Virus record (IMG/VR): IMGVR_UViG_3300036045_000022
Span: 1 to 47,260 of that record
DNA length: 47,260 nt
Origin: a virus
Lineage: Duplodnaviria; Caudoviricetes
Strand: one strand, 5' to 3'
The position numbers were made by a program, and so were the translations under genes. Under the pieces are notes generated by a model. It had not been told where the DNA came from and made no database searches. It was given only the letters and a program-made list of their open reading frames with translations. Below are positions 4,629 through 47,034 of the stretch, piece after piece (positions within the stretch are counted from its first letter, which is position 1; each line of letters opens with the position of its first letter).

Positions 4629-5043
4629 CGCAGAGCGGTACCACGACTTCTCGTGCGGCCACCGGGTGTACGGACACGAGTCCAAGTGCGCGCACCTGCA
4701 CGGGCACAACTACCGCGTGCACTTCATCGTGCATCCGGCAGAGGCCTTGGACGCGGTCGGTCGCGTCCTCGACTTCTCGGTGATCAACAGCCACCTGTGC
4801 CAGTGGCTGGAGCAGCGATGGGACCACCGCACGCTGATCGCCGAGGACGACCCGTGGCTCAATCCGCTGCGCGCGATCGATCCCCACGGCGTCGTGTCGG
4901 TGCCGTTCAACCCGACGGCCGAGAACATGGCGTCCTACCTGGTCGAGGTCGTGGGCCCGATCCAGCTGCACGGGACCGGGTGTCGCCTGATGGGCGTCAA
5001 GATCGAGGAGACACGGAAATGCAGCGCGTCGTTCTTCCGGTAA
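4618..5043 (+). CDS. queD: 6-carboxy-tetrahydropterin synthase
   Basis: GHRV..C..LHGHNY, DF, WDH and PTAEN motifs. Confidence 0.92.
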   Translation: MAHSAERYHDFSCGHRVYGHESKCAHLHGHNYRVHFIVHPAEALDAVGRVLDFSVINSHLCQWLEQRWDHRTLIAEDDPWLNPLRAIDPHGVVSVPFNPTAENMASYLVEVVGPIQLHGTGCRLMGVKIEETRKCSASFFR

Positions 5044-5711
5044 ACGAGATATTCGAGAGCGTGCAGGGCGAGGCCGAGCACGCCGGCGAGCCGTCCGTGT
5101 TCGTGAGGCTGCAAGGATGTCCGGTCGGGTGCGCGTGGTGCGACACCAAGCACACGTGGAACACCGACGAGAGGCAGGTGATCGACATCGCGCGGCTGAC
5201 CGCCAAGACCGCGGACCCGTCGCCCACCTACGCGAACATGAGCGTCGACGAGGTCGTCACAGAGGTCGTGGCTCACACGAGCAGGCACGTCGTCCTGACA
5301 GGCGGGGAGCCGTGCATGTACGACCTGACCGACCTGTGCGACACCCTCTTCGCGTGCGGCCGCAGCGTGCAGATCGAGACCAGTGGGACCTTCCCGATAC
5401 GCGCCCCCGCCGAGGCGTGGGTCACCCTGTCCCCCAAGATCAAGAAGCCCGGCGGGTTCCCGGTGCTGTCGATGGCGTGGTCGCGGGCGAACGAGATAAA
5501 GCTCCCGGTCGCCATCGAGCGCGACATCACCACGTTCGACGCCGAGATCGCGGCCATGCAGGCCGATGACCGGGAACGTGTCCTTGCCAAGCCGGTCTGG
5601 CTCCAGCCGGTCTTTCAGTCCAAGCACGGGATGACCCTGTGCATCGAGGCGGCGGCGGATCGTGGGTGGCGGGTCAGCCTGCAAGGGCACAAGGCCTATG
5701 GCATCCGCTGA
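5019..5711 (+). CDS. queE: 7-carboxy-7-deazaguanine synthase (radical SAM)
   Basis: EIFESVQGE, CPVGCAWCDT (CxxxCxxC), TGGEP, IETSG, SPK, LQP and SLQGHK. Confidence 0.95.
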   Translation: MQRVVLPVNEIFESVQGEAEHAGEPSVFVRLQGCPVGCAWCDTKHTWNTDERQVIDIARLTAKTADPSPTYANMSVDEVVTEVVAHTSRHVVLTGGEPCMYDLTDLCDTLFACGRSVQIETSGTFPIRAPAEAWVTLSPKIKKPGGFPVLSMAWSRANEIKLPVAIERDITTFDAEIAAMQADDRERVLAKPVWLQPVFQSKHGMTLCIEAAADRGWRVSLQGHKAYGIR

Positions 5712-32623: not shown

Positions 32624-33288
32624 GCGAAATCCGTGTTCGCATTCCCGATGGCGTCACACCCGCCATCCTGCTCGCCGTAGCGCAGGCATTCGCACTCGCG
32701 GCGCGCGAGGCCGGTGCGGTCGACAGCACCATTCCGAAGTCGAACCTGCCGGTGCCGGATGTCGGCCCGACCGTCACCCTGCCGCGCACCGGGCACGTGC
32801 TGCCAATGCCGGGCGAGGGCGAGGGTTTCATCGCCTACTACCAGCGCACCTGCCCGTACACCGGCGGCCGTCCCGAGGTCGCGGGCGCGCTGGCGATGGG
32901 AGGCGCGTCGGTGCTGCCGTCGCAGACCGGCGTGCCCGCTACCGACTGGCCGATCAACGCCGATGCGTTCGCTAACCCGGACGCCTACGGCCTCTCGAAG
33001 CCGTCCGGTCCCGGCGAGGATCAATCGCGGCTCTGGGAGGGCGCGACCGACGTGCGCACGATGTCGGCGGCCGACCTCGAGGCGCTGCTCGTGGGGATCG
33101 GCATCGACACCGTGCTGCGCGATCACGCGCGATGGGGTCCGCTGTCGGCCAAGCACGAGCTCTCGGCGCTGATGCACGCTTCCGGCATCCGCGACGACGG
33201 CACCGGCCACATCGTGCCGCCGCCGTCGTTCCCGCAGCTGGCCGCGTGGTCCGTGGAGCAGACCAAGCGGATGGCGGGGCTGGCGTGA
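32620..33288 (+). CDS. hypothetical protein
   Basis: AGGAG SD, ATGA coupling. Confidence 0.65.
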   Translation: MSEIRVRIPDGVTPAILLAVAQAFALAAREAGAVDSTIPKSNLPVPDVGPTVTLPRTGHVLPMPGEGEGFIAYYQRTCPYTGGRPEVAGALAMGGASVLPSQTGVPATDWPINADAFANPDAYGLSKPSGPGEDQSRLWEGATDVRTMSAADLEALLVGIGIDTVLRDHARWGPLSAKHELSALMHASGIRDDGTGHIVPPPSFPQLAAWSVEQTKRMAGLA

Positions 33289-33428
33289 AGGCCCGGTTCA
33301 ACTACCGCAGCGCCGTCACCGGCCGGTTCGTCACGGCCGGCTACGCCAAGCGGTATCCCCACATGACGGTCAGGCATCGCGTCCGGGAGCGCGCTTGCGT
33401 TGCGCTGCCACGTCCAGCCCGCAGGTGA
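33285..33428 (+). CDS. small basic protein (RSAVTGRFVT motif)
   Basis: GTGA coupling; RSA.TGRFV...A...P..TV small-protein pattern. Confidence 0.5.
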   Translation: MKARFNYRSAVTGRFVTAGYAKRYPHMTVRHRVRERACVALPRPARR

Positions 33429-33574
33429 CGGGAACAACAGCGGGCAATGCGCGACAGGGCCGCTAGACTCCTCCTCCTTGGGCGCGCATCGTGGGTCGGG
33501 CGATCCGTTCGCGGGTCGCCCCTCCACGTCAATAGCAACGGCGATATGCGCACCACGATCCCACCAGCGCCCGC

Positions 33575-33590
33575 TGTTTCACGTGGAACG
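33575..33590. promoter_or_regulatory. parS-like site TGTTTCACGTGGAACG
   Basis: Reverse complement CGTTCCACGTGAAACA matches the TGTTNCACGTGAAACA consensus at 15/16. Confidence 0.65.
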
Positions 33591-33608
33591 ATCGTTCGAT
33601 CCATAGAG

Positions 33609-33657
33609 TGGTAGGCCGTACTGGATTTGAACCAGTGACCAACGGATTAAAAGTCCG
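33609..33657 (-). mobile_element. attP: attP core: 3' half of tRNA-Lys(UUU)
   Basis: Minus strand CGGACTTTTAATCCGTTGGTCACTGGTTCAAATCCAGTACGGCCTACCA = anticodon arm, T arm and CCA end; next to the integrase. Confidence 0.9.
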
Positions 33658-33796
33658 AAATCCCCGGAAACCGGCCAAAATCGACGCAGGAGCCGACTTG
33701 GGCGTTCCAGGCTACCCCGACCCTCTGTAGCCCCGTATCCCGCCGCCTGCTTCGATCCCGGCCGGGTCTTGTGGCGGTCCGGCGGGCCGTTCCTCG

Positions 33797-33852
33797 CCCC
33801 ACCACCTGCACCACGCGCCCCACCGGCCCCCACCAGCGCCCCACCAGCGCCC
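33797..33852. repeat. integrase arm-type direct repeats (CCCACCAGCGCC-like); also 33550-33571
   Basis: Five CACC-centred units at 10-11-bp spacing on one side of the core, two on the other. Confidence 0.6.
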
Positions 33853-33861
33853 GCCCGGCGG

Positions 33862-34812
33862 TCACTCGTCCTTGAAGGCTCCCTGCAAGGCCCCCATCGC
33901 GTTGCGCAGCGCCGCGTCCGACAGGTGGGAGTAGCGCGCCGTGGTCTGCGTGGACGAGTGCCCAAGGATGCGGCCGATGGTCAGCAGGTCGACGCCCGCG
34001 ATGGCAAGCAACGAGGCCGTCGTGTGCCGCAGGTCGTGGAGCCGGACGTGCCGGAGGCCTGCGCGCGCCCGCGCCTTTTCGAACGCGCCGATCAACGGGT
34101 GCGGGGAACCGGAGAACGGGACGTGCACGAGGTACGGCTCGAGCAGCGGGATGATCGGGATCCTGCGCGGCGCGCCGGTCTTGGTGTTGATCCCGATGTC
34201 GATCACGTCGCGTCCGATCTGGGAGCGTTGCAGCCGAAGAATCTCCGACCGGCGCATCCCGGTGTAGATCGCCACCGCCGCGAACGCGCGCGCGCGCTCG
34301 TCGTCGTATGCGGCCAAGAGCCGCGTGACCTGTTCCGGGGTGAGGTAGACGTGCCTTGCGTTGTGTTCAGGAAGAAGGGGTATCTGCGACGACAGGTTCT
34401 CGCGTATCCATCCTTTTCGATGGGCGAATTTGGAAACCGCTTTGAGGACACATAGCCTGCGGTTGATCGTCGCGGCGGCGAGGTCGACAGCGCGATAGCT
34501 GTCCGCCACCTTGGTGATGTCGCTTACGGTCTTGCCTTCCACATGCTCGCCGAGTGCCAGCGCGTGCGAGCGCGTGGCCTTCTCGGCCTTCCTTCCGGCG
34601 ACCGACTCCCGCAGCCATATTTGGATGGCGGCAGGAAGCGGTACAACCGGAAGGCGACCGAGGTCGGCCTGATCGAAAATCTCGTTGCGCAGCTTCGCTT
34701 CTAGCGCTTCCGCCTGCCGACGTGTCGTGCCTTTCGGGCAGCGGCGATGAACGCGGATTCCGCGAAGCTGAAACTCGACGACGTGCTGACCGCCGTCTTG
34801 ACGGACTGCCAT
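33862..34812 (-). CDS. int: tyrosine integrase
   Basis: TGMRRSEI, KTG, HDLRHT, ILGHS and TARYSH catalytic motifs. Confidence 0.95.
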   Translation of the reverse strand: MAVRQDGGQHVVEFQLRGIRVHRRCPKGTTRRQAEALEAKLRNEIFDQADLGRLPVVPLPAAIQIWLRESVAGRKAEKATRSHALALGEHVEGKTVSDITKVADSYRAVDLAAATINRRLCVLKAVSKFAHRKGWIRENLSSQIPLLPEHNARHVYLTPEQVTRLLAAYDDERARAFAAVAIYTGMRRSEILRLQRSQIGRDVIDIGINTKTGAPRRIPIIPLLEPYLVHVPFSGSPHPLIGAFEKARARAGLRHVRLHDLRHTTASLLAIAGVDLLTIGRILGHSSTQTTARYSHLSDAALRNAMGALQGAFKDE

Positions 34813-34985
34813 GCTGCCCCCGCGATCTTTTCTTCGACGTATTGATCGAGGCTCGCCGCGATGATCGCGACGCGCCCAGGCGAGGGGCGAAAGTAACGCA
34901 AAGCACCGGACGCAAGCAAGCGGCGGACTCCCGTGTCGCTGATGCCGAGGCGCTTGCGCGCTTCGGCAACACTTACAGGCGACAC
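34701..34985 (-). CDS. xis: excisionase-like HTH protein
   Basis: VAEARKRLGIS..GVRRLL..G.L winged HTH; overlaps the int start. Confidence 0.7.
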   Translation of the reverse strand: MSPVSVAEARKRLGISDTGVRRLLASGALRYFRPSPGRVAIIAASLDQYVEEKIAGAAWQSVKTAVSTSSSFSFAESAFIAAARKARHVGRRKR

Positions 34986-34987
34986 GA

Positions 34988-35482
34988 TCAGTGGATTGCG
35001 GAGACGGCTGCTCCCGCCGTTTGCAGCGCGGTGATTGCGAGTGCGATCTTCGCCATGCGTTCGTTGCTCGGATCGTCGTGCGATGTCGCGGCATCGCGCA
35101 ACGACTCCGCCGACGACTGCGCGGCGCGGACCTTTCCCACAAGCTCATGCATCGCCCGCGCGAACCAATCTTCGTTCGCGACAACGACACTCATTGGATA
35201 GTAAGTGCCTTCGCGCTCGTGATTGTTCTTCGACGCCATCGCAGGCACATGCACCCACGGATCGGACTTCCCGTTGATACACGGCACCGCGATGCGGATC
35301 AGCCCGCGCGCTTGTTGCAGGCGGTATTCGTGCCCCGCCTTGGTGTCGTCCCACTCGAATTGCGCATGTAGCGGCGACGACTTCGAGCGAGCGGACTTCA
35401 CTACGTTGCTCGCTTTCAATCCTTCCGCCGCGCCGATGCGCTGCAACTCTTCGATCACTTCCTTACTGACCTTCTTGTTCAT
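34988..35482 (-). CDS. conserved phage protein downstream of the GGC-NN array
   Basis: AGGAG SD; SPLH..FEWDD..A...YRL.QAR.LIR motif. Confidence 0.8.
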   Translation of the reverse strand: MNKKVSKEVIEELQRIGAAEGLKASNVVKSARSKSSPLHAQFEWDDTKAGHEYRLQQARGLIRIAVPCINGKSDPWVHVPAMASKNNHEREGTYYPMSVVVANEDWFARAMHELVGKVRAAQSSAESLRDAATSHDDPSNERMAKIALAITALQTAGAAVSAIH

Positions 35483-35505
35483 CGAATTGCTCCTGTGAAA
35501 GTTTT

Positions 35506-35757
35506 GCCTGCCTTGCCATGCCTGCCTTGCCGTGCCTTGCCCCGCCGAGCCGAGCCATGCCGCGCCCCGCCATGCCACGCCTGCCATGCGCTTGCCTCGC
35601 CCCGCCGTGCCGTGCCGTGCCGGGCCCCGCCGTGCCGTGCCTGCCATGCCATGCCTTGCCCCGCCCTGCCCTGCCCTGCCACGCCCTGCCTCGCCTGCCA
35701 TGCCTTGCCTCGCCCCGCCGTGCCGTGCCGTGCCGGGCCCGCCGTGCCGTGCCTGCC
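35506..35757 (-). ncRNA. GGC-NN pentamer array, candidate guide RNA array
   Basis: About 52 GGC-anchored units with variable dinucleotides, punctuated by GGC-A units; begins at the stop codon of the RAMP-like gene. The repeat is certain; the RNA function is inferred. Confidence 0.75.
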
Positions 35758-36398
35758 TAGACGAGTTCGAACGTCCCCCATCCCAAGCCCGTCGAATCGC
35801 GGCTATCTGGGCGACCCTCACCGATGCCGACCTGCAAGCCGACGCGCAGCATCAGGTTGGCAACGTCTTCGCGGGAGAACTGATCGGCGTCGTACGACAC
35901 CACGACACGCGCACTCCACTCGCGCCACATGGGGCGAACGCGAATGTCCGGCGTGCGCGCCTTATTGCGAACCGCCATGTCGATGCGCTCTGGCGTTCCG
36001 ACTATCTTTACCAGTGGTACGCCATCCACCTTGTCGATCCCGTCTGCCGCTATGAAGAGAGACAGCTTTGCGAGCGTCATCTGGAATCCAACGAGACGGC
36101 ACGCCGAGACCATTGCTTGCCGGAATGCGCCCGCCGGAATCCCGCACCAGCCGTCCGCGCTGACGTGCATTGCGTTGTGGAAGTCGGCGTCAAAGTCACG
36201 CGCTTCGCGCTTCTTCTTCCCGCGCGATGCCGCGCTGTCCTGCTGCATCTTTGACATCATTGCCTGCATCGCCTTCGCGGTGAATCGCGCTTGCACATAC
36301 GGCGCGGTCCCGCGCAGGTTGAACACCGCCGTCTGCATGCTTGGGGCCTTGATCACCACCACAGGGGCCTTGGGCTTCTTCGTGTCTACTGCAGCCAT
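35757..36398 (-). CDS. stand-alone RAMP/Cas7-like protein (213 aa)
   Basis: N-terminal strand FNLRGTAP, IPAGAFRQAM helix, RP....W, and C-terminal Gly-rich loop GIGEGRP...GWGTF; GGAG SD. Confidence 0.8.
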   Translation of the reverse strand: MAAVDTKKPKAPVVVIKAPSMQTAVFNLRGTAPYVQARFTAKAMQAMMSKMQQDSAASRGKKKREARDFDADFHNAMHVSADGWCGIPAGAFRQAMVSACRLVGFQMTLAKLSLFIAADGIDKVDGVPLVKIVGTPERIDMAVRNKARTPDIRVRPMWREWSARVVVSYDADQFSREDVANLMLRVGLQVGIGEGRPDSRDSTGLGWGTFELV

Positions 36399-36889
36399 AG
36401 CGTCTTCTCCATTTCGAAAGGTTGAAAGGTGTACGGGAGGTAAAGCGGGTGCGCTGGCGACCTGTCGACGTTCATCGCCAATGCGTGCGGCTTCACGTTG
36501 TTCTGGTGGAGCATGCGCAAGACACGCAGGCCACGTTCCATGTGCGCGCCGTGCTTTCCCCACGCGCACACTACGAGCGACGACCTCGCGGCCGTGTGAA
36601 CGATCATTTCGTCGTTCCCGTCTCCCACCGGGTCCGTTGCCGAGTACAGCGCGCGCGGATCGGTGGAGCGAAGCGCGAACAGGTTGGTGACGAACAGGCC
36701 GCCGTAACCCCACATGCGAGCACGGCGTTCGCAGCGCTCCACCGTGGGGTCGTTGTCAACCTCGTCTGCGGTGCTCGGGTTCAACATCAGAAAGCAGACC
36801 GGCATCGCGGACAGGTTCCAGCAACGCCACAACTGAAAGCGGTAGCGCATGCACGGCGAGAAGATCGCGCCGCTCGCATCGGTTTCCAT
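36386..36889 (-). CDS. DUF1643 family protein
   Basis: YR..L.R.W, MLNPSTAD, DPT, NLFA.R.TDP, AWG and HPLY motifs. Confidence 0.88.
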   Translation of the reverse strand: METDASGAIFSPCMRYRFQLWRCWNLSAMPVCFLMLNPSTADEVDNDPTVERCERRARMWGYGGLFVTNLFALRSTDPRALYSATDPVGDGNDEMIVHTAARSSLVVCAWGKHGAHMERGLRVLRMLHQNNVKPHALAMNVDRSPAHPLYLPYTFQPFEMEKTLWLQ

Positions 36890-36903
36890 GCTGGTGTCTC
36901 CTG

Positions 36904-36941
36904 AAAAGAAAGGCCGCCCAAGCGACTGCGCGCTGGGCGGC
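36904..36941 (-). terminator. intrinsic terminator
   Basis: GGCCGCCCA...TGGGCGGCC stem followed by TTTCTTTT on the minus strand. Confidence 0.7.
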
Positions 36942-36964
36942 CTGTGGTTGCGGACGAAGAACGT

Positions 36965-37822
36965 CTACGCGGCCTGCTTCGCCTTGGTCGGCCGACCGCC
37001 GCCAGCGCCCGGCTTGAAGCGCAGCGCAGGCGGGAGGGGCGGCACCGCGAACAGCTCGAGTTCAGCGGCCTGCAGGTTGCGGATCGGACGGCGCTCCATG
37101 AACGCGCGGATCGCGGCCTGCGTCTTGTTGTACCTGTCGGAGTCCGTCGTGCCGAGCCGCTTCGTGATCCAAGCGTCGCGCAACGATATGGCGGCACGGT
37201 CCGCCTCGCGCTCGATGCAGCCGCTTTTCAGAATCTCGGCCATGCGCCACAGGGCCGCGCGGTCTTGCGTGTACCACGCGCGGCCAAACACCGACGCCAC
37301 CGACACCGGGATGCACTTGGTACCAACACCGCGAGTCACGTTCAACACCTTGACGGCGAAGTCCACCGCCTCGGCAAAGTGCTCGTACCACTGATGCGTG
37401 ATCTCGTGAGGCACCATCATGTTTCTGGACGTGACGCCGATGGCGATGATCTTCGCGATTGCCGCCGCCGTGGAATTGGTCGTCGTCCAGCCTGCGTAGT
37501 GCGCCACGTCGGAGAAGTTACGCGGCAAGTTCGAGTCCACCACCACCACGTCCTCTGCGTTGACTCCTCGCGTCACCATAATGCGAATGGTGCACCCGCT
37601 CTCGACGATGGCCCACATGCGGTGCTGGCCGTCGATCATGTGCAGTTGATGGTCGAACGCGATCCCTTGGTGAGTCTCGCGCCACAGCCCTGCGCGCATC
37701 TGCGCTGCGTAGAAGTCCACACGGGACTGCCTTACAGCGCGGTTGCCTTCCATCGACTCCAGATACTGCGCGGCGGTCGTAGGGTTGATGTCCTCCCACC
37801 GCGATGTCAGTTTGCTTGTCAT
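36965..37822 (-). CDS. ParB-like (DGQHR) domain protein
   Basis: NR.V....V..YA..M..G.W...GIAFD....IDGQHR; ATG 37822 with SD. Confidence 0.8.
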   Translation of the reverse strand: MTSKLTSRWEDINPTTAAQYLESMEGNRAVRQSRVDFYAAQMRAGLWRETHQGIAFDHQLHMIDGQHRMWAIVESGCTIRIMVTRGVNAEDVVVVDSNLPRNFSDVAHYAGWTTTNSTAAAIAKIIAIGVTSRNMMVPHEITHQWYEHFAEAVDFAVKVLNVTRGVGTKCIPVSVASVFGRAWYTQDRAALWRMAEILKSGCIEREADRAAISLRDAWITKRLGTTDSDRYNKTQAAIRAFMERRPIRNLQAAELELFAVPPLPPALRFKPGAGGGRPTKAKQAA

Positions 37823-37836
37823 TGTGTGAACGTCTC

Positions 37837-38004
37837 CTATCGTTGGCGAACAAGCCACGCGAGAAGCCCGCGCAGCGCTTTCAGCATCGCGCCACATTGC
37901 TCGCGAGCGAACTCCCAATCTTTTTGGGAGCACGCTTCATCGAGACGGCGCGTAGCGAGCTGGATTGCAAGAAGCGATTCGCTCCAATCGTGAGGGGTTC
38001 TCAT
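37837..38004 (-). CDS. hypothetical protein
   Basis: ATGA-coupled small ORF. Confidence 0.5.
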   Translation of the reverse strand: MRTPHDWSESLLAIQLATRRLDEACSQKDWEFAREQCGAMLKALRGLLAWLVRQR

Positions 38005-38444
38005 GCTGGCAGCTCCGGACATTCGAACCCGTAGATCGGCTCCGGTTGTGAGTAGCCTTTGATCACCCTCTTGCACGCGGAGCCGGATTTGAGGCTGCAT
38101 GACAGGTTGATGATCCTGTCTGCTGTTTTGGAGTGTGCGAACTGGTAGTCGCGCTGGCCGAGAATCGCCCAATCACTTGTCCGGACGCACTGCAACCCCA
38201 AAGGAGTCCAGTCTTCGATGAACTGGATCAGCGACGCAGACTCGCGGAAGTCATCGAGGTCAAACTTCCACTCGACAAACACTCCGAACCCCGGCACACA
38301 CACAACCGCCGTCGAGCCGCCGAATCGCGCCACGCCTGCGCGCACGCACTCCTCTGCCTCGCGTAGCCGGTTCAGGTTGGCGATCAATCTGGAGTGCTCG
38401 TCGTACGCCTTGTTGATGGCGTGTTCGATGCAGTCGGAGGTCAT
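38001..38444 (-). CDS. hypothetical protein
   Basis: GGAGG SD; packed in the operon. Confidence 0.6.
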   Translation of the reverse strand: MTSDCIEHAINKAYDEHSRLIANLNRLREAEECVRAGVARFGGSTAVVCVPGFGVFVEWKFDLDDFRESASLIQFIEDWTPLGLQCVRTSDWAILGQRDYQFAHSKTADRIINLSCSLKSGSACKRVIKGYSQPEPIYGFECPELPA

Positions 38445-38798
38445 TTACTCGCCCTCCGGGAGATCGACGAACGACGACAGGGTGGGCATGCCAACCCGCT
38501 CCGCGATCACGCGGTTCAGCGCGGCGCGATTGCGCACCGCGAATCGCTTGAACAGCGAGGCGATGTGAACCTTGACCGTTCCTTCCGAGATTTCGAGGAT
38601 GCGCGAGATCGCCTTGTTCGGCTCCCCATCCAGCGTCAGGCGCAGCACTTCCGCTTGGCGTCGCGTGAGGCCCAGATCGCTTCGCGGGAGCGTGGCGCAG
38701 TTGATCGGCATCGGCCGCGCAAGGCGGACGTTCCAGTACATACCGCGTGCGCGAAGGTCGGTCACGACGTCCTCGGCGCGCGCCACGTTGTTCATCAT
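38445..38798 (-). CDS. LuxR/NarL-type HTH protein (no sensor domain)
   Basis: LTRRQAEVL....G.PNK.I...L.ISEGTVKVHI..L..R..V.NR. Confidence 0.88.
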   Translation of the reverse strand: MMNNVARAEDVVTDLRARGMYWNVRLARPMPINCATLPRSDLGLTRRQAEVLRLTLDGEPNKAISRILEISEGTVKVHIASLFKRFAVRNRAALNRVIAERVGMPTLSSFVDLPEGE

Positions 38799-38820
38799 TG
38801 TGTGGTCTCCTATCCGGTGT

Positions 38821-38860
38821 AAAAAAAGGCGGCGGCACTCACAACCAGAGCGCCGCCGCC
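38821..38860 (-). terminator. intrinsic terminator
   Basis: GGCGGCGGCGCTC-loop-GAGTGCCGCCGCC followed by T7. Confidence 0.8.
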
Positions 38861-38910
38861 GAACCCCACTACGAAAGCAGCGGCGCAGACTCGCGCCGCT
38901 TTACAGCGAC

Positions 38911-39951
38911 CTACTTCTTAGTGCGTTCCGCCGCGTCGAAGGCCGCGATTCGCGCATCGATCGCGGCGCCCACTTCCTTGCGCTCGCCCTCCGCGAGTCC
39001 GCGCGCCAAGGCCGCCAGCAGCGTCAGCTCGTCGCGCGTGCTGGCCTTCTGTGCCGACACGATCAACGAGTCCTTCGTGGGACCGGGCGTGGCGTCACCC
39101 GTGCCACCGTTGGTGCCCTTGGACTTCCTCTCCGCGAGCTTGGCCTTCAACGCATCGGCCCCGCCCGTCGTCGTGGCGGCCGCGGTCGCTTCCGCGAACA
39201 GCTCGTCCACCGTGGTGTCACCTTCCTTCAACGCGGTGAAGCACCCGAGCAGGATGGTCATGTCGTCCACCGTGATGTCGTCGACCGACGGGCGACCGAG
39301 CTTGCGCAGGATCATTTCCTCGGTCGCGCCCATCTTCCCCAGCTTCTCCAACGCCTTGGCGCGGCGGTTGGCGAGCGTCGTCGCGTCTCCCACCGCCACC
39401 TGCCTGGACTGATCCCACAGGTCGGACCAGAACGCCTTCGGGACCCCTTTCAGGATCGCGTTGCGCAGCGCGATGGAGCATGCCGCGTTCGACGTGACCA
39501 CAATCATGTCCGACGAGAACCGGCGGCCGTCCGCGCCAACGATCCGCCGCTGCACCTCGTAGGTGATCGCGACGTTCTTCTGCAGGTCCATGAAGGCACC
39601 TTGGGCCACAACGAACTGGCCCTTGTCGTCCACGACGCGCGCGCCGGCGCGGCAATTGCCCCACGACGACAGCACGATCTCGGCGAAGCGCGCACTCGGC
39701 CCCACGATTGTCTTGCCTGCGCGCGGGAGAGCGTAGGTGCACTCCTCCGCCACCGACTCGTTCAGCGTGGCCATCGTCAGCACTTCGTTGCGGAACGCCC
39801 GCACGTTCCGCGGATAGCGGTGCGCGGTCGCAACCTGCTGGTCGATCTCGGACTTGTTGAGCAGCGCCACGACAGACGCTTCCGCGTCCATAGTGGCCAG
39901 CGCGGTCGTGGTCTCGGTGACCACACCTTCTTCATCGATCACTTGGTTCAT
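38911..39951 (-). CDS. putative ssDNA-annealing recombinase
   Basis: Directly follows the YqaJ exonuclease; A.RYPR...Y..PR.G..I.GPS.RFAE pattern; family not certain. Confidence 0.6.
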   Translation of the reverse strand: MNQVIDEEGVVTETTTALATMDAEASVVALLNKSEIDQQVATAHRYPRNVRAFRNEVLTMATLNESVAEECTYALPRAGKTIVGPSARFAEIVLSSWGNCRAGARVVDDKGQFVVAQGAFMDLQKNVAITYEVQRRIVGADGRRFSSDMIVVTSNAACSIALRNAILKGVPKAFWSDLWDQSRQVAVGDATTLANRRAKALEKLGKMGATEEMILRKLGRPSVDDITVDDMTILLGCFTALKEGDTTVDELFAEATAAATTTGGADALKAKLAERKSKGTNGGTGDATPGPTKDSLIVSAQKASTRDELTLLAALARGLAEGERKEVGAAIDARIAAFDAAERTKK

Positions 39952-46053: not shown

Positions 46054-47034
46054 ATGCAGACAGCACTACGCGATGTGAGCGTCCCTCTCGCAGATCCACC
46101 GTATCCAGAGGACGTGTCGTCGAACGGGTACAAGTTCGAGATCGACGTCCCGCGCATCATGCAGTCGCGCACTTGGGTGCTCTCCCCGCCTGATTTGCGA
46201 CCGTGGTTGTTGATGCTGTGGACGATGTCGTGGATGCAGCGGCCGTGCGGCTCCCTGCCTGACGACGACGAACTGATCGCCGCCACCATCGGCATGCAGC
46301 CGACTGTTTTTGCCGCACACAAGTCCTACCTTTTGTCTGGTTGGAGGCGATGCAAGGACGGACGCCTTTATCACCGTGTCATAACCGACATCATCATCGG
46401 GATGTTGCACAAACGGGTCCAACTGACCCAACGGCAACGCAAGTTCCGCAAAACCCACGGGCCCACAAACCCACCGCAACCCATTGAATCTAATCATGTC
46501 ACGCGTGACAAACGGTTACTAACGCGTGGGAACAGGAAACAGGAACAGGAACAGGAACAGGAACAGGAACAGGGTGGAAAACCGTCGGTGGCGTCGCTTC
46601 GCTCGACCACCGACTCCAAAGGGGTAGTGGATGTTGGCTCTTCTACTGCAAAGCAAACCAGCATCACGAAAACTCGTAACAGCGCGCCGTCCGCAACAGC
46701 GCTCGTCGCGCGCGCATTCGGCGATGCCTTTTTCCAGCGCTACGGCACCGACTTCCCGACAAGCGCCAAGTCGAACGGGCAATTCCGCGCGCTCGTAGCT
46801 CGCATCGGCAAGGACGACGCGCCGCACGTCGCCGCGTTCTACGTCAAGCACAACGCGAGGTGGTACGTCGAGCGCGGTCATTCGCCGGGTTGCCTCCTGA
46901 TCGACGCCGAGAAGCTCCGTACCGAGTGGGCGACAGGGCGGGAAATGACGTCGACCAAGGCGCTGCAGATCGATCGCACGCAGACTCGCGCCAGCGCGTT
47001 CGACCGGTTTCTGGACCCGGAGGGCGACCGATGA
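46054..47034 (+). CDS. phage replication initiator (DUF1376/YdaU-like N-terminus)
   Basis: LW..SW.Q.P.GSLPDDD..IA, DGRLYH.V; central QE-repeat linker. Confidence 0.8.
   Translation: MQTALRDVSVPLADPPYPEDVSSNGYKFEIDVPRIMQSRTWVLSPPDLRPWLLMLWTMSWMQRPCGSLPDDDELIAATIGMQPTVFAAHKSYLLSGWRRCKDGRLYHRVITDIIIGMLHKRVQLTQRQRKFRKTHGPTNPPQPIESNHVTRDKRLLTRGNRKQEQEQEQEQEQGGKPSVASLRSTTDSKGVVDVGSSTAKQTSITKTRNSAPSATALVARAFGDAFFQRYGTDFPTSAKSNGQFRALVARIGKDDAPHVAAFYVKHNARWYVERGHSPGCLLIDAEKLRTEWATGREMTSTKALQIDRTQTRASAFDRFLDPEGDR
46497..46572. repeat. probable replication origin elements within the initiator gene
   Basis: Perfect palindrome TGTCACGCGTGACA (46497-46510), second ACGCGTG, and (CAGGAA)5 at 46540-46569. 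Confidence 0.5.

Follow-up and report, generated by a model that had tools for sequence, protein, structure and literature searches.

The window analysed here, a stretch of 47,260 nucleotides, is a whole virus record with 127-bp direct terminal repeats, and its gene content includes portal, head, tape measure, integrase and CI-like genes. One region of it carries, in this order, a gene for a solo RAMP protein (vipr), an array of GGC-NN units, a vap-like accessory gene, an excisionase-like gene (HTH_17) and the integrase gene. When the minus strand is split at every GGC, the array falls into four blocks (B1 to B4) and a stub, cut apart by 4-nt GGCA units. The features are as follows:

35757..36398, minus strand: vipr, 213 aa, solo RAMP (Cas7-like) by homology and AF2 model; the first GGCA opens with the final G of its TAG stop codon
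35754..35757, minus strand: GGCA delimiter at the start of the array, sharing a base with the vipr stop codon (sequence)
35696..35753, minus strand: block B1, 58 nt including its closing GGCA, a copy of B3 in which unit 3 has lost 1 nt (sequence; deletion also in an X3 contig)
35642..35695, minus strand: block B2, 54 nt including its closing GGCA, with 10 units in phase, missing from one X1 contig (sequence)
35582..35641, minus strand: block B3, 60 nt including its closing GGCA, a copy of B1 in which 1 nt has been inserted ahead of the last unit (sequence; insertion also in an X3 contig)
35523..35581, minus strand: block B4, 59 nt including its closing GGCA, with 11 units in phase; less repetitive than any other guide of the array (sequence)
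35506..35522, minus strand: two-unit stub, last GGCA and final GGC (sequence)
35490..35494, minus strand: AGGAG, probable ribosome-binding site of the accessory gene (sequence; function predicted)
34988..35482, minus strand: vap-like accessory gene, 164 aa; homologs in 35/38 vipr loci and in Cy-LDV1 (E<1e-3)

The tract thus begins on the last base of the vipr stop codon, and a gap of 23 nt separates its end from the 164-aa gene. It is the sole run of at least four GGY-NN units in the 47-kb genome, and the only long-period array listed for the window by Tandem Repeats Finder (period 5). The GGCA units start at 35757, 35699, 35645, 35585, 35526 and 35512 on the minus strand, giving delimiter-to-delimiter lengths of 58, 54, 60, 59 and 14 nt, the last being the stub. 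Such even spacing is rare by chance: only 0.09% of 200,000 random placements of four delimiters kept the four largest gaps within one unit. At every junction GGCAG and the next GGC overlap by one G. A seventh 4-nt unit, GGCG, lies in unit 3 of B1, where one G has gone from a G-run; it corresponds to the single G that the sequence-only parse of the tract shows in B1. Elsewhere the anchors are GGC everywhere except one. The last units of the four blocks are all R-H (AT, AT, AT and AA), and GG is the fourth unit from the end in 4/4 of them. An earlier sequence-only reading had parsed the tract into these units and had described guide-sized blocks of 10-11 units; the GGC split of the minus strand reproduces its parse unit for unit, and the blocks measure 54-60 nt with 10-11 units each.

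The product of the upstream gene is, on the evidence of homology and a predicted structure, a Vipr family protein, and it fits the description of Vipr as a stand-alone RAMP-fold protein of about 20 kDa. A phmmer search of the PDB with its sequence returned, as its only hit, the Vipr protein of coliphage SUSP1 (36pp_D, E 0.009), and a family profile built from 45 sequences returned the same protein at E 1.3e-7 as the only PDB match under E 0.38, the sequence match to SUSP1 Vipr spanning just about 48 C-terminal residues. Of 4056 candidate sequences, 3885 proved to be homologs at E<=0.001. The AF2 model has a pLDDT of 84; its Foldseek matches are RAMPs of the Cmr/Csm/Cas7 family, and VIA aligned 143 of its residues to a RAMP structure (Z 11.5, rmsd 3.1). 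Vipr itself was absent from the fold-search rows, the Foldseek library ending in April 2026. In SUSP1 Vipr, R138, D177, W178 and R179 have been described as the GGY contacts of the thumb and G-loop, with W178 stacking on G2 (10.64898/2026.04.26.720927, as far as its accessible text goes). By pairwise alignment and clade columns, a mapping at the level of sequence only, R138 and R179 correspond to R154 and R195, both invariant in the clade, D177 corresponds to the near-invariant E193, and W178 is replaced by an invariant glycine, G194. On this mapping the window protein would have in common with the type II Vipr proteins of SUSP1 and a P. fulva prophage the GGY-binding Arg/Asp(Glu)/Arg positions, and would differ from SUSP1 Vipr in having Gly for W178.

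The accessory protein is less informative. It matches phrog_15946, a group of unknown function; it had no PDB match under E 1.8, no Pfam family was found in more than 1/20 of its members, and a structural cluster search (Atlas) returned unnamed viral clusters only. A single-sequence AF2 model (pLDDT 44) was unusable. A DUF1643 gene (36889-36386, minus strand) overlaps the start of vipr and possibly belongs to the same operon. No sigma-70-like promoter was found on the minus strand of 33300-38600, and the array may be co-transcribed inside a vipr-vap mRNA.

Is the punctuation a property of this one genome or of the gene family? For this comparison a set of 38 viral vipr loci was used. Delimiter-bounded blocks occur in 29/38 of them, amounting to 145 unique blocks with a modal length of 8-10 units, and 162/163 block calls fall on the vipr strand. 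Counted without presupposing a delimiter, 96/100 in-phase 4-nt units in the homologs are GGCA, which upholds the proposal of the sequence-only reading that the punctuation is a functional grammar and not slippage noise. The content of the blocks, by contrast, turns over completely: no block is common to different locus families, and the best likeness of any homolog to a window block is 6/11 units. The comparison of homologous arrays that had been suggested as a check thus finds the punctuation kept while no block is held in common between families. One of the homologous arrays (L012, 3678-4967) is about 1.3 kb long with 26 parsed blocks, far longer than that of the window.

The same unannotated arrangement is found in named phages, which match the window in the vipr/vap pair and GGCA punctuation and differ from it in guide content. 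Matches to the Vipr protein were found in 31 phage records. The nearest named Vipr, 74% identical, is that of Cyanophage Cy-LDV1 (BK059895, L257), whose gene order is vipr, array, vap, second array and excisionase. Mycobacterium phage Quico (cluster F, L258 1955-2360), Gordonia phage ODay (L259 2990-3215) and Gordonia phage UmaThurman (L260 2990-3355) each have vipr and vap homologs with a GGCA-punctuated array; in UmaThurman the array bears the annotation of hypothetical gene 40. Between the actinophage Vipr proteins and that of the window, identity is about 32% over 73% of the length.

These comparisons bear on the alternative that the tract has no guide function and is either a microsatellite shaped by slippage or a piece of a coding frame. 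Stop-free frames do cross it on both strands, and the homologous array of UmaThurman has been annotated as a gene. However, block lengths of 58, 54, 60 and 59 nt hold no frame, and the same punctuation accompanies the same gene pair in 29/38 loci and in the named phages with NN content that is always different. Such a conserved grammar with variable content refutes this reading, and we consider its probability to be close to nil.

The homologs also indicate which parts of the grammar are general. In homolog blocks the last unit begins with a purine in 131/139 cases, its second base is not G in 135/139, and it is AA in 61/139; on the far side of the junction, a purine opens the next unit in 122/137 homolog junctions. 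The conserved junction signal is thus GGC-R-H-GGCA-GGC-R. The A-rich block ends pointed out in the sequence-only reading hold for the last unit, and the other end units are not conserved. The GG at the fourth position from the end, which that reading had also stressed, is real in the four blocks of the window and fails as a rule of the clade: it occurs in 13/139 homolog blocks of at least seven units, where GG makes up 5% of units overall, and it is rejected as grammar. Since unrelated trios of blocks have some common unit at positions -2 to -7 in 3.5% of cases between loci and 6.7% within a locus, the GG column of the window is either a mild local coincidence or a mark of common ancestry.

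To which known system does the locus belong? In a CRISPR array, unique spacers lie between direct repeats of about 25-40 nt, and TIGR-Tas systems employ a Tas protein with a Nop domain. The period is 60-79 nt in CRISPR arrays and 18 nt in TIGR arrays, according to the accessible text of a recent preprint (10.64898/2026.10.21.760802). Both identities are rejected, the tract having a period of 5, no repeat-spacer organization and a RAMP fold as its neighbour. Class 1 CRISPR, with its Cas7/Csm3/Cmr4 backbones, resembles the locus in the RAMP fold and in having an array from which guides would be cut; it differs in that the window has no repeat-spacer units, a period of 5 and a specificity that would be non-contiguous. 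No cas families were found among the 15 and 22 proteins scanned. VIPR, a CRISPR-related system described in 2026 by which phages silence DNA, is a much closer match. Its guides have 9-16 GGY/NN units (10.64898/2026.04.26.720920), a range that the window blocks share with type II guides as a count of pentamers, and the legend to fig. S18 of the same preprint describes staggered vrRNAs that arise from '1 nt overlapping positions', so that the end of one is the start of the next. The punctuation of the window fits the staggered layout, in which, as far as the legend text goes, guide units likewise abut with a one-base overlap. Staggered VIPR arrays and the window locus are also alike in their location in phages, vipr, a single accessory gene, GGY/NN repeats and lack of a self-target; set beside the legend text, the window stands apart in having one guide duplicated, each copy with a slip. 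Type II guides, on the other hand, are about 100 nt long and carry a conserved 3' tail, which in the SUSP1 clade is a pseudoknot, whereas the window blocks are 54-60 nt and tail-less. Because the blocks abut and just 23 nt separate the array from the vap start, leaving no such tail, the window array is not SUSP1-like in layout. A structured tail after the stub was sought in the fold of 35522-35470 and is absent (z 0.14). We are highly confident that the tract, vipr and vap together make up a VIPR staggered array.

On this basis the tract is best read as encoding four putative tail-less VIPR guide RNAs, three of them distinct, that would be delimited or released at the slips and would silence rival DNA; we give this reading a probability of roughly 0.85. 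The proposed process may be outlined as follows. Each one-base slip would mark a guide boundary, and cutting there would yield tail-less guides; GGC-R-H-GGCA-GGC-R would act as the signal for maturation, the resulting RNAs being about 54-60 nt long, and the last NN of each block would be mainly structural. As in type II, one Vipr protomer would bind each GGY, and the NN pairs would read double-stranded DNA with every third base skipped. Vipr filaments would then be guided to the DNA of rival phages or mobile elements and silence it. In type II systems, NN pairing with one skipped target base and silencing of rival elements have been described (10.64898/2026.04.26.720920, 10.64898/2026.04.26.720927 and 10.64898/2026.10.15.759431, in the accessible portions of these texts), and by analogy the window array quite probably uses the same 1-nt-skip code.

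The NN letters themselves offer indirect evidence on this code. Of six frames, the one with which the 1001 internal NN of the homologs agree best is sense-strand codon positions 1-2 (r 0.68, next 0.22), and this frame was the best in 1961/2000 bootstraps over loci; such a fit is what a wobble-skipping code predicts. A model of independent base frequencies, however, describes the NN table at least equally well (r 0.79). In a residual test the sense 1-2 frame (0.70) is closely followed by antisense 2-3 (0.62).

Are the guides really cut apart at the junctions? The long RNA might instead stay whole, each slip resetting the register of the Vipr filament so that the blocks act as separate guides. 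One protomer per pentamer, as described in the accessible text of 10.64898/2026.04.26.720927, would make a 4-nt unit a natural break in the filament, and neither a nuclease nor a ribozyme is evident: Rfam over 33000-39000 returned a tRNA fragment and a weak miRNA match only, and no hairpins were found within the blocks, which fold no better than shuffled sequences (z -1.08 to 0.51). A pure reset, however, needs neither GGCA (96/100) nor base preferences in the flanking units, and the preprint legend speaks of 'individual processed vrRNAs' (10.64898/2026.04.26.720920). We regard phasing without cutting as improbable and real cleavage at the junctions, as the guide-RNA reading proposes, as fairly probable. 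Small-RNA sequencing in that preprint confirmed the ribozyme and single-guide layouts and not the staggered one (10.64898/2026.04.26.720920); its text and supplement text, as far as accessible, hold no occurrence of the GGCAG junction motif and do not explain how tail-less guides mature, and neither 'staggered' nor 'processing' occurs in the accessible text of 10.64898/2026.10.15.759431. A literature search returned no VIPR papers beyond these two, 10.64898/2026.04.26.720927 and 10.64898/2026.10.21.760802, and 'staggered' together with 'vrRNA' only in the first. A bolder and rather doubtful conjecture is that the Vipr filament matures the guides by itself: a slip at GGC-R-H-GGCA-GGC-R would expose a scissile bond at which the RAMP cuts its own polycistronic mRNA with no Cas6, ribozyme or tail, and the array would have been caught in the midst of turnover, its duplicated guide bearing two complementary slips, with a 37-nt core looping out B2 in part of the phage population.

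This core comes from the relation between B1 and B3, whose alignment has zero substitutions, two 1-nt indels and a common stretch of 37 identical nt. The near-identity of the two blocks had been noticed from the sequence alone, as had the resulting count of three distinct guides with B1 and B3 a copied pair, and both statements stand. In B1 one G is absent from the G-run of unit 3, and in B3 there is an extra base at the last anchor. The region is present in four DNA runs. Contigs of X3, from a second study, correspond to 35342-35661 and 35722-35872 with 0 differences and cover both indels; because the indels are identical there, they are not errors of the window. The junction of B1 and B2 is bridged by none of the listed contigs, the X3 contig entering B2 by 20 nt under a bridging rule of 31 letters. 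In a contig of X1 (depth 34), 35590 is followed directly by 35704, so that 113 nt are left out, and 37 letters at the join could belong to either flank. These ambiguous letters are the common core of B1 and B3, and the join would remove B2 and retain both slips. In X2, from the same sample as X1, the contigs break on both flanks of the array. Assemblers can collapse repeats that exceed the assembly word in length, and the contig lacking B2 is either a real loop-out or deletion or an artefact of assembly.

B1 and B3 would have arisen by duplication within the array, each being then hit by one 1-nt slip, after which B1 would retain 8 in-register 3' units and B3 10 in-register 5' units. The two are likely to be partly disabled copies, and B4 is the most probable live guide. 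Near-duplicate blocks occur in 3/21 multi-block locus families of the homologs, among which L015/L016 reflect mere strain variation, and in-array duplicates are found in L008 and L026.

Such damage raises the question of whether the array still works. The locus may be a genuine VIPR locus in which slippage and duplication have spoiled guides B1-B3, so that these have lost any match, and only B4 is possibly live, a reading that agrees with ours on identity and departs from it on current function. There is a frame slip in each copy of the duplicated guide, B2 is missing from one contig, and adjacent identical units are more frequent in the window (7/29) than in the homologs (95/1140, p 0.008), a post hoc test chosen after the blocks had been seen. 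In the same direction points the lack of any target found, as set out below; the scans, however, demanded exact matches of 16-20 bases, whereas published targets pass at 80%. Both the vipr and the vap reading frames are intact, and the anchors are GGC but for one. We consider decay of B1-B3 rather unlikely.

A search of both strands of the window with skips of 0-3 gave no self-target at an NN match of 80% or above, the best score being 16/22 (p>=0.23 against 200 shuffles each), in agreement with the sequence-only reading, in which none had been seen by eye. When 123 guides were compared with 553 kb comprising the 38 homolog loci and the window under a 1-nt skip, there were 6 real and 11 shuffled matches at 85% or above. 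The guide at 3678 of L012 matches the minus strand of L023 at 17/18 under a 1-nt skip, where shuffles expect 1.3 matches at 90% or above. Eight scans for outside targets, six of them viral, one of metagenomes and one of genomes, found nothing above chance. The viral-collection scans, with exact matching at 16 specified bases, gave 14 loci for B4 units 1-8, 32 for B4 units 4-11, 67 for B3 units 1-8, 4 for B3 units 3-10, 35 for B2 units 1-8 and 37 for B2 units 3-10, and one unit-shuffled B4 control gave 29 against the 14 of the real B4 units 1-8. An excess of gapped matches over shuffled controls, the lack of which the sequence-only reading had listed among three refuting results, was thus not seen in the collections scanned. 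These scans needed exact cores of 16-20 bases and could miss real targets, as natural VIPR targets require just an 80% NN match (10.64898/2026.04.26.720920), and prophages of the host were covered by one exact 20-base scan only.

Extended to full length, the best B4 score is 21/22, obtained once in a 315-kb record (L083), where 0.15 would be expected by chance among 32 matches, followed by 20/22 in L050, L053, L055 and L071. B3 reaches 20/22 in 7 loci of one gene with 37-39% GC, and B2 reaches 19/20 in 23 loci that represent a small number of sequences, 22 of these loci being from low-GC phages that have 31-42% GC. In antisense orientation B4 matches the LPD1 domain of two phage proteins (L050, 20/22, and L045, 18/22), which is a lead only; with up to 3 mismatches B2 and B3 are present in 0/5 of the B4-match records, namely the two LPD1 records and three others. 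The notion that a Walker A motif is spelled by B4 gained no support, none of the scan matches inspected lying in such a context. The metagenome scan with B4 units 1-9 gave 28 loci, the best at 20/22 in 5 and none higher. A genome-scan match of B3 units 1-10 in an AraC-type gene of Gemmatimonadales places the skip on codon position 1 and was rejected as chance. B4 is present in 0/5 vipr-bearing records, and guides read as amino-acid classes scored at best 7/10 against 242 Vipr and integrase proteins.

VIPR and staggered arrays are already in print, and the window is a further example of them. What it adds is, first, the junction consensus from 137 homolog junctions, a specific hypothesis for the maturation of tail-less guides, and second, a small natural example in which a guide has been duplicated, has slipped and may be looped out; this is relevant to how guides are gained and lost in arrays that have no Cas1. 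In addition, the presence of the same layout in cultured phages of laboratory Mycobacterium smegmatis and of Gordonia terrae makes the processing of staggered arrays testable in native infection.

Some features of the phage itself may be recorded. Just past the integrase gene lies a 3' half resembling tRNA-Lys (33667-33612, minus strand), likely the attP core, at which ARAGORN found no whole tRNA. Over about 50 nt this half shows 96% identity with records of Pandoraea and Paraburkholderia, and because of this match the host is likely to be Burkholderiales-like, as judged from sequence. A GGAACA hexamer repeated 7.3 times (46529-46573) lies within the replication-protein gene and possibly represents origin iterons, and a QueE-like radical SAM gene (4653-5711) near a ParB/methyltransferase-like gene possibly forms part of a DNA-modification module.
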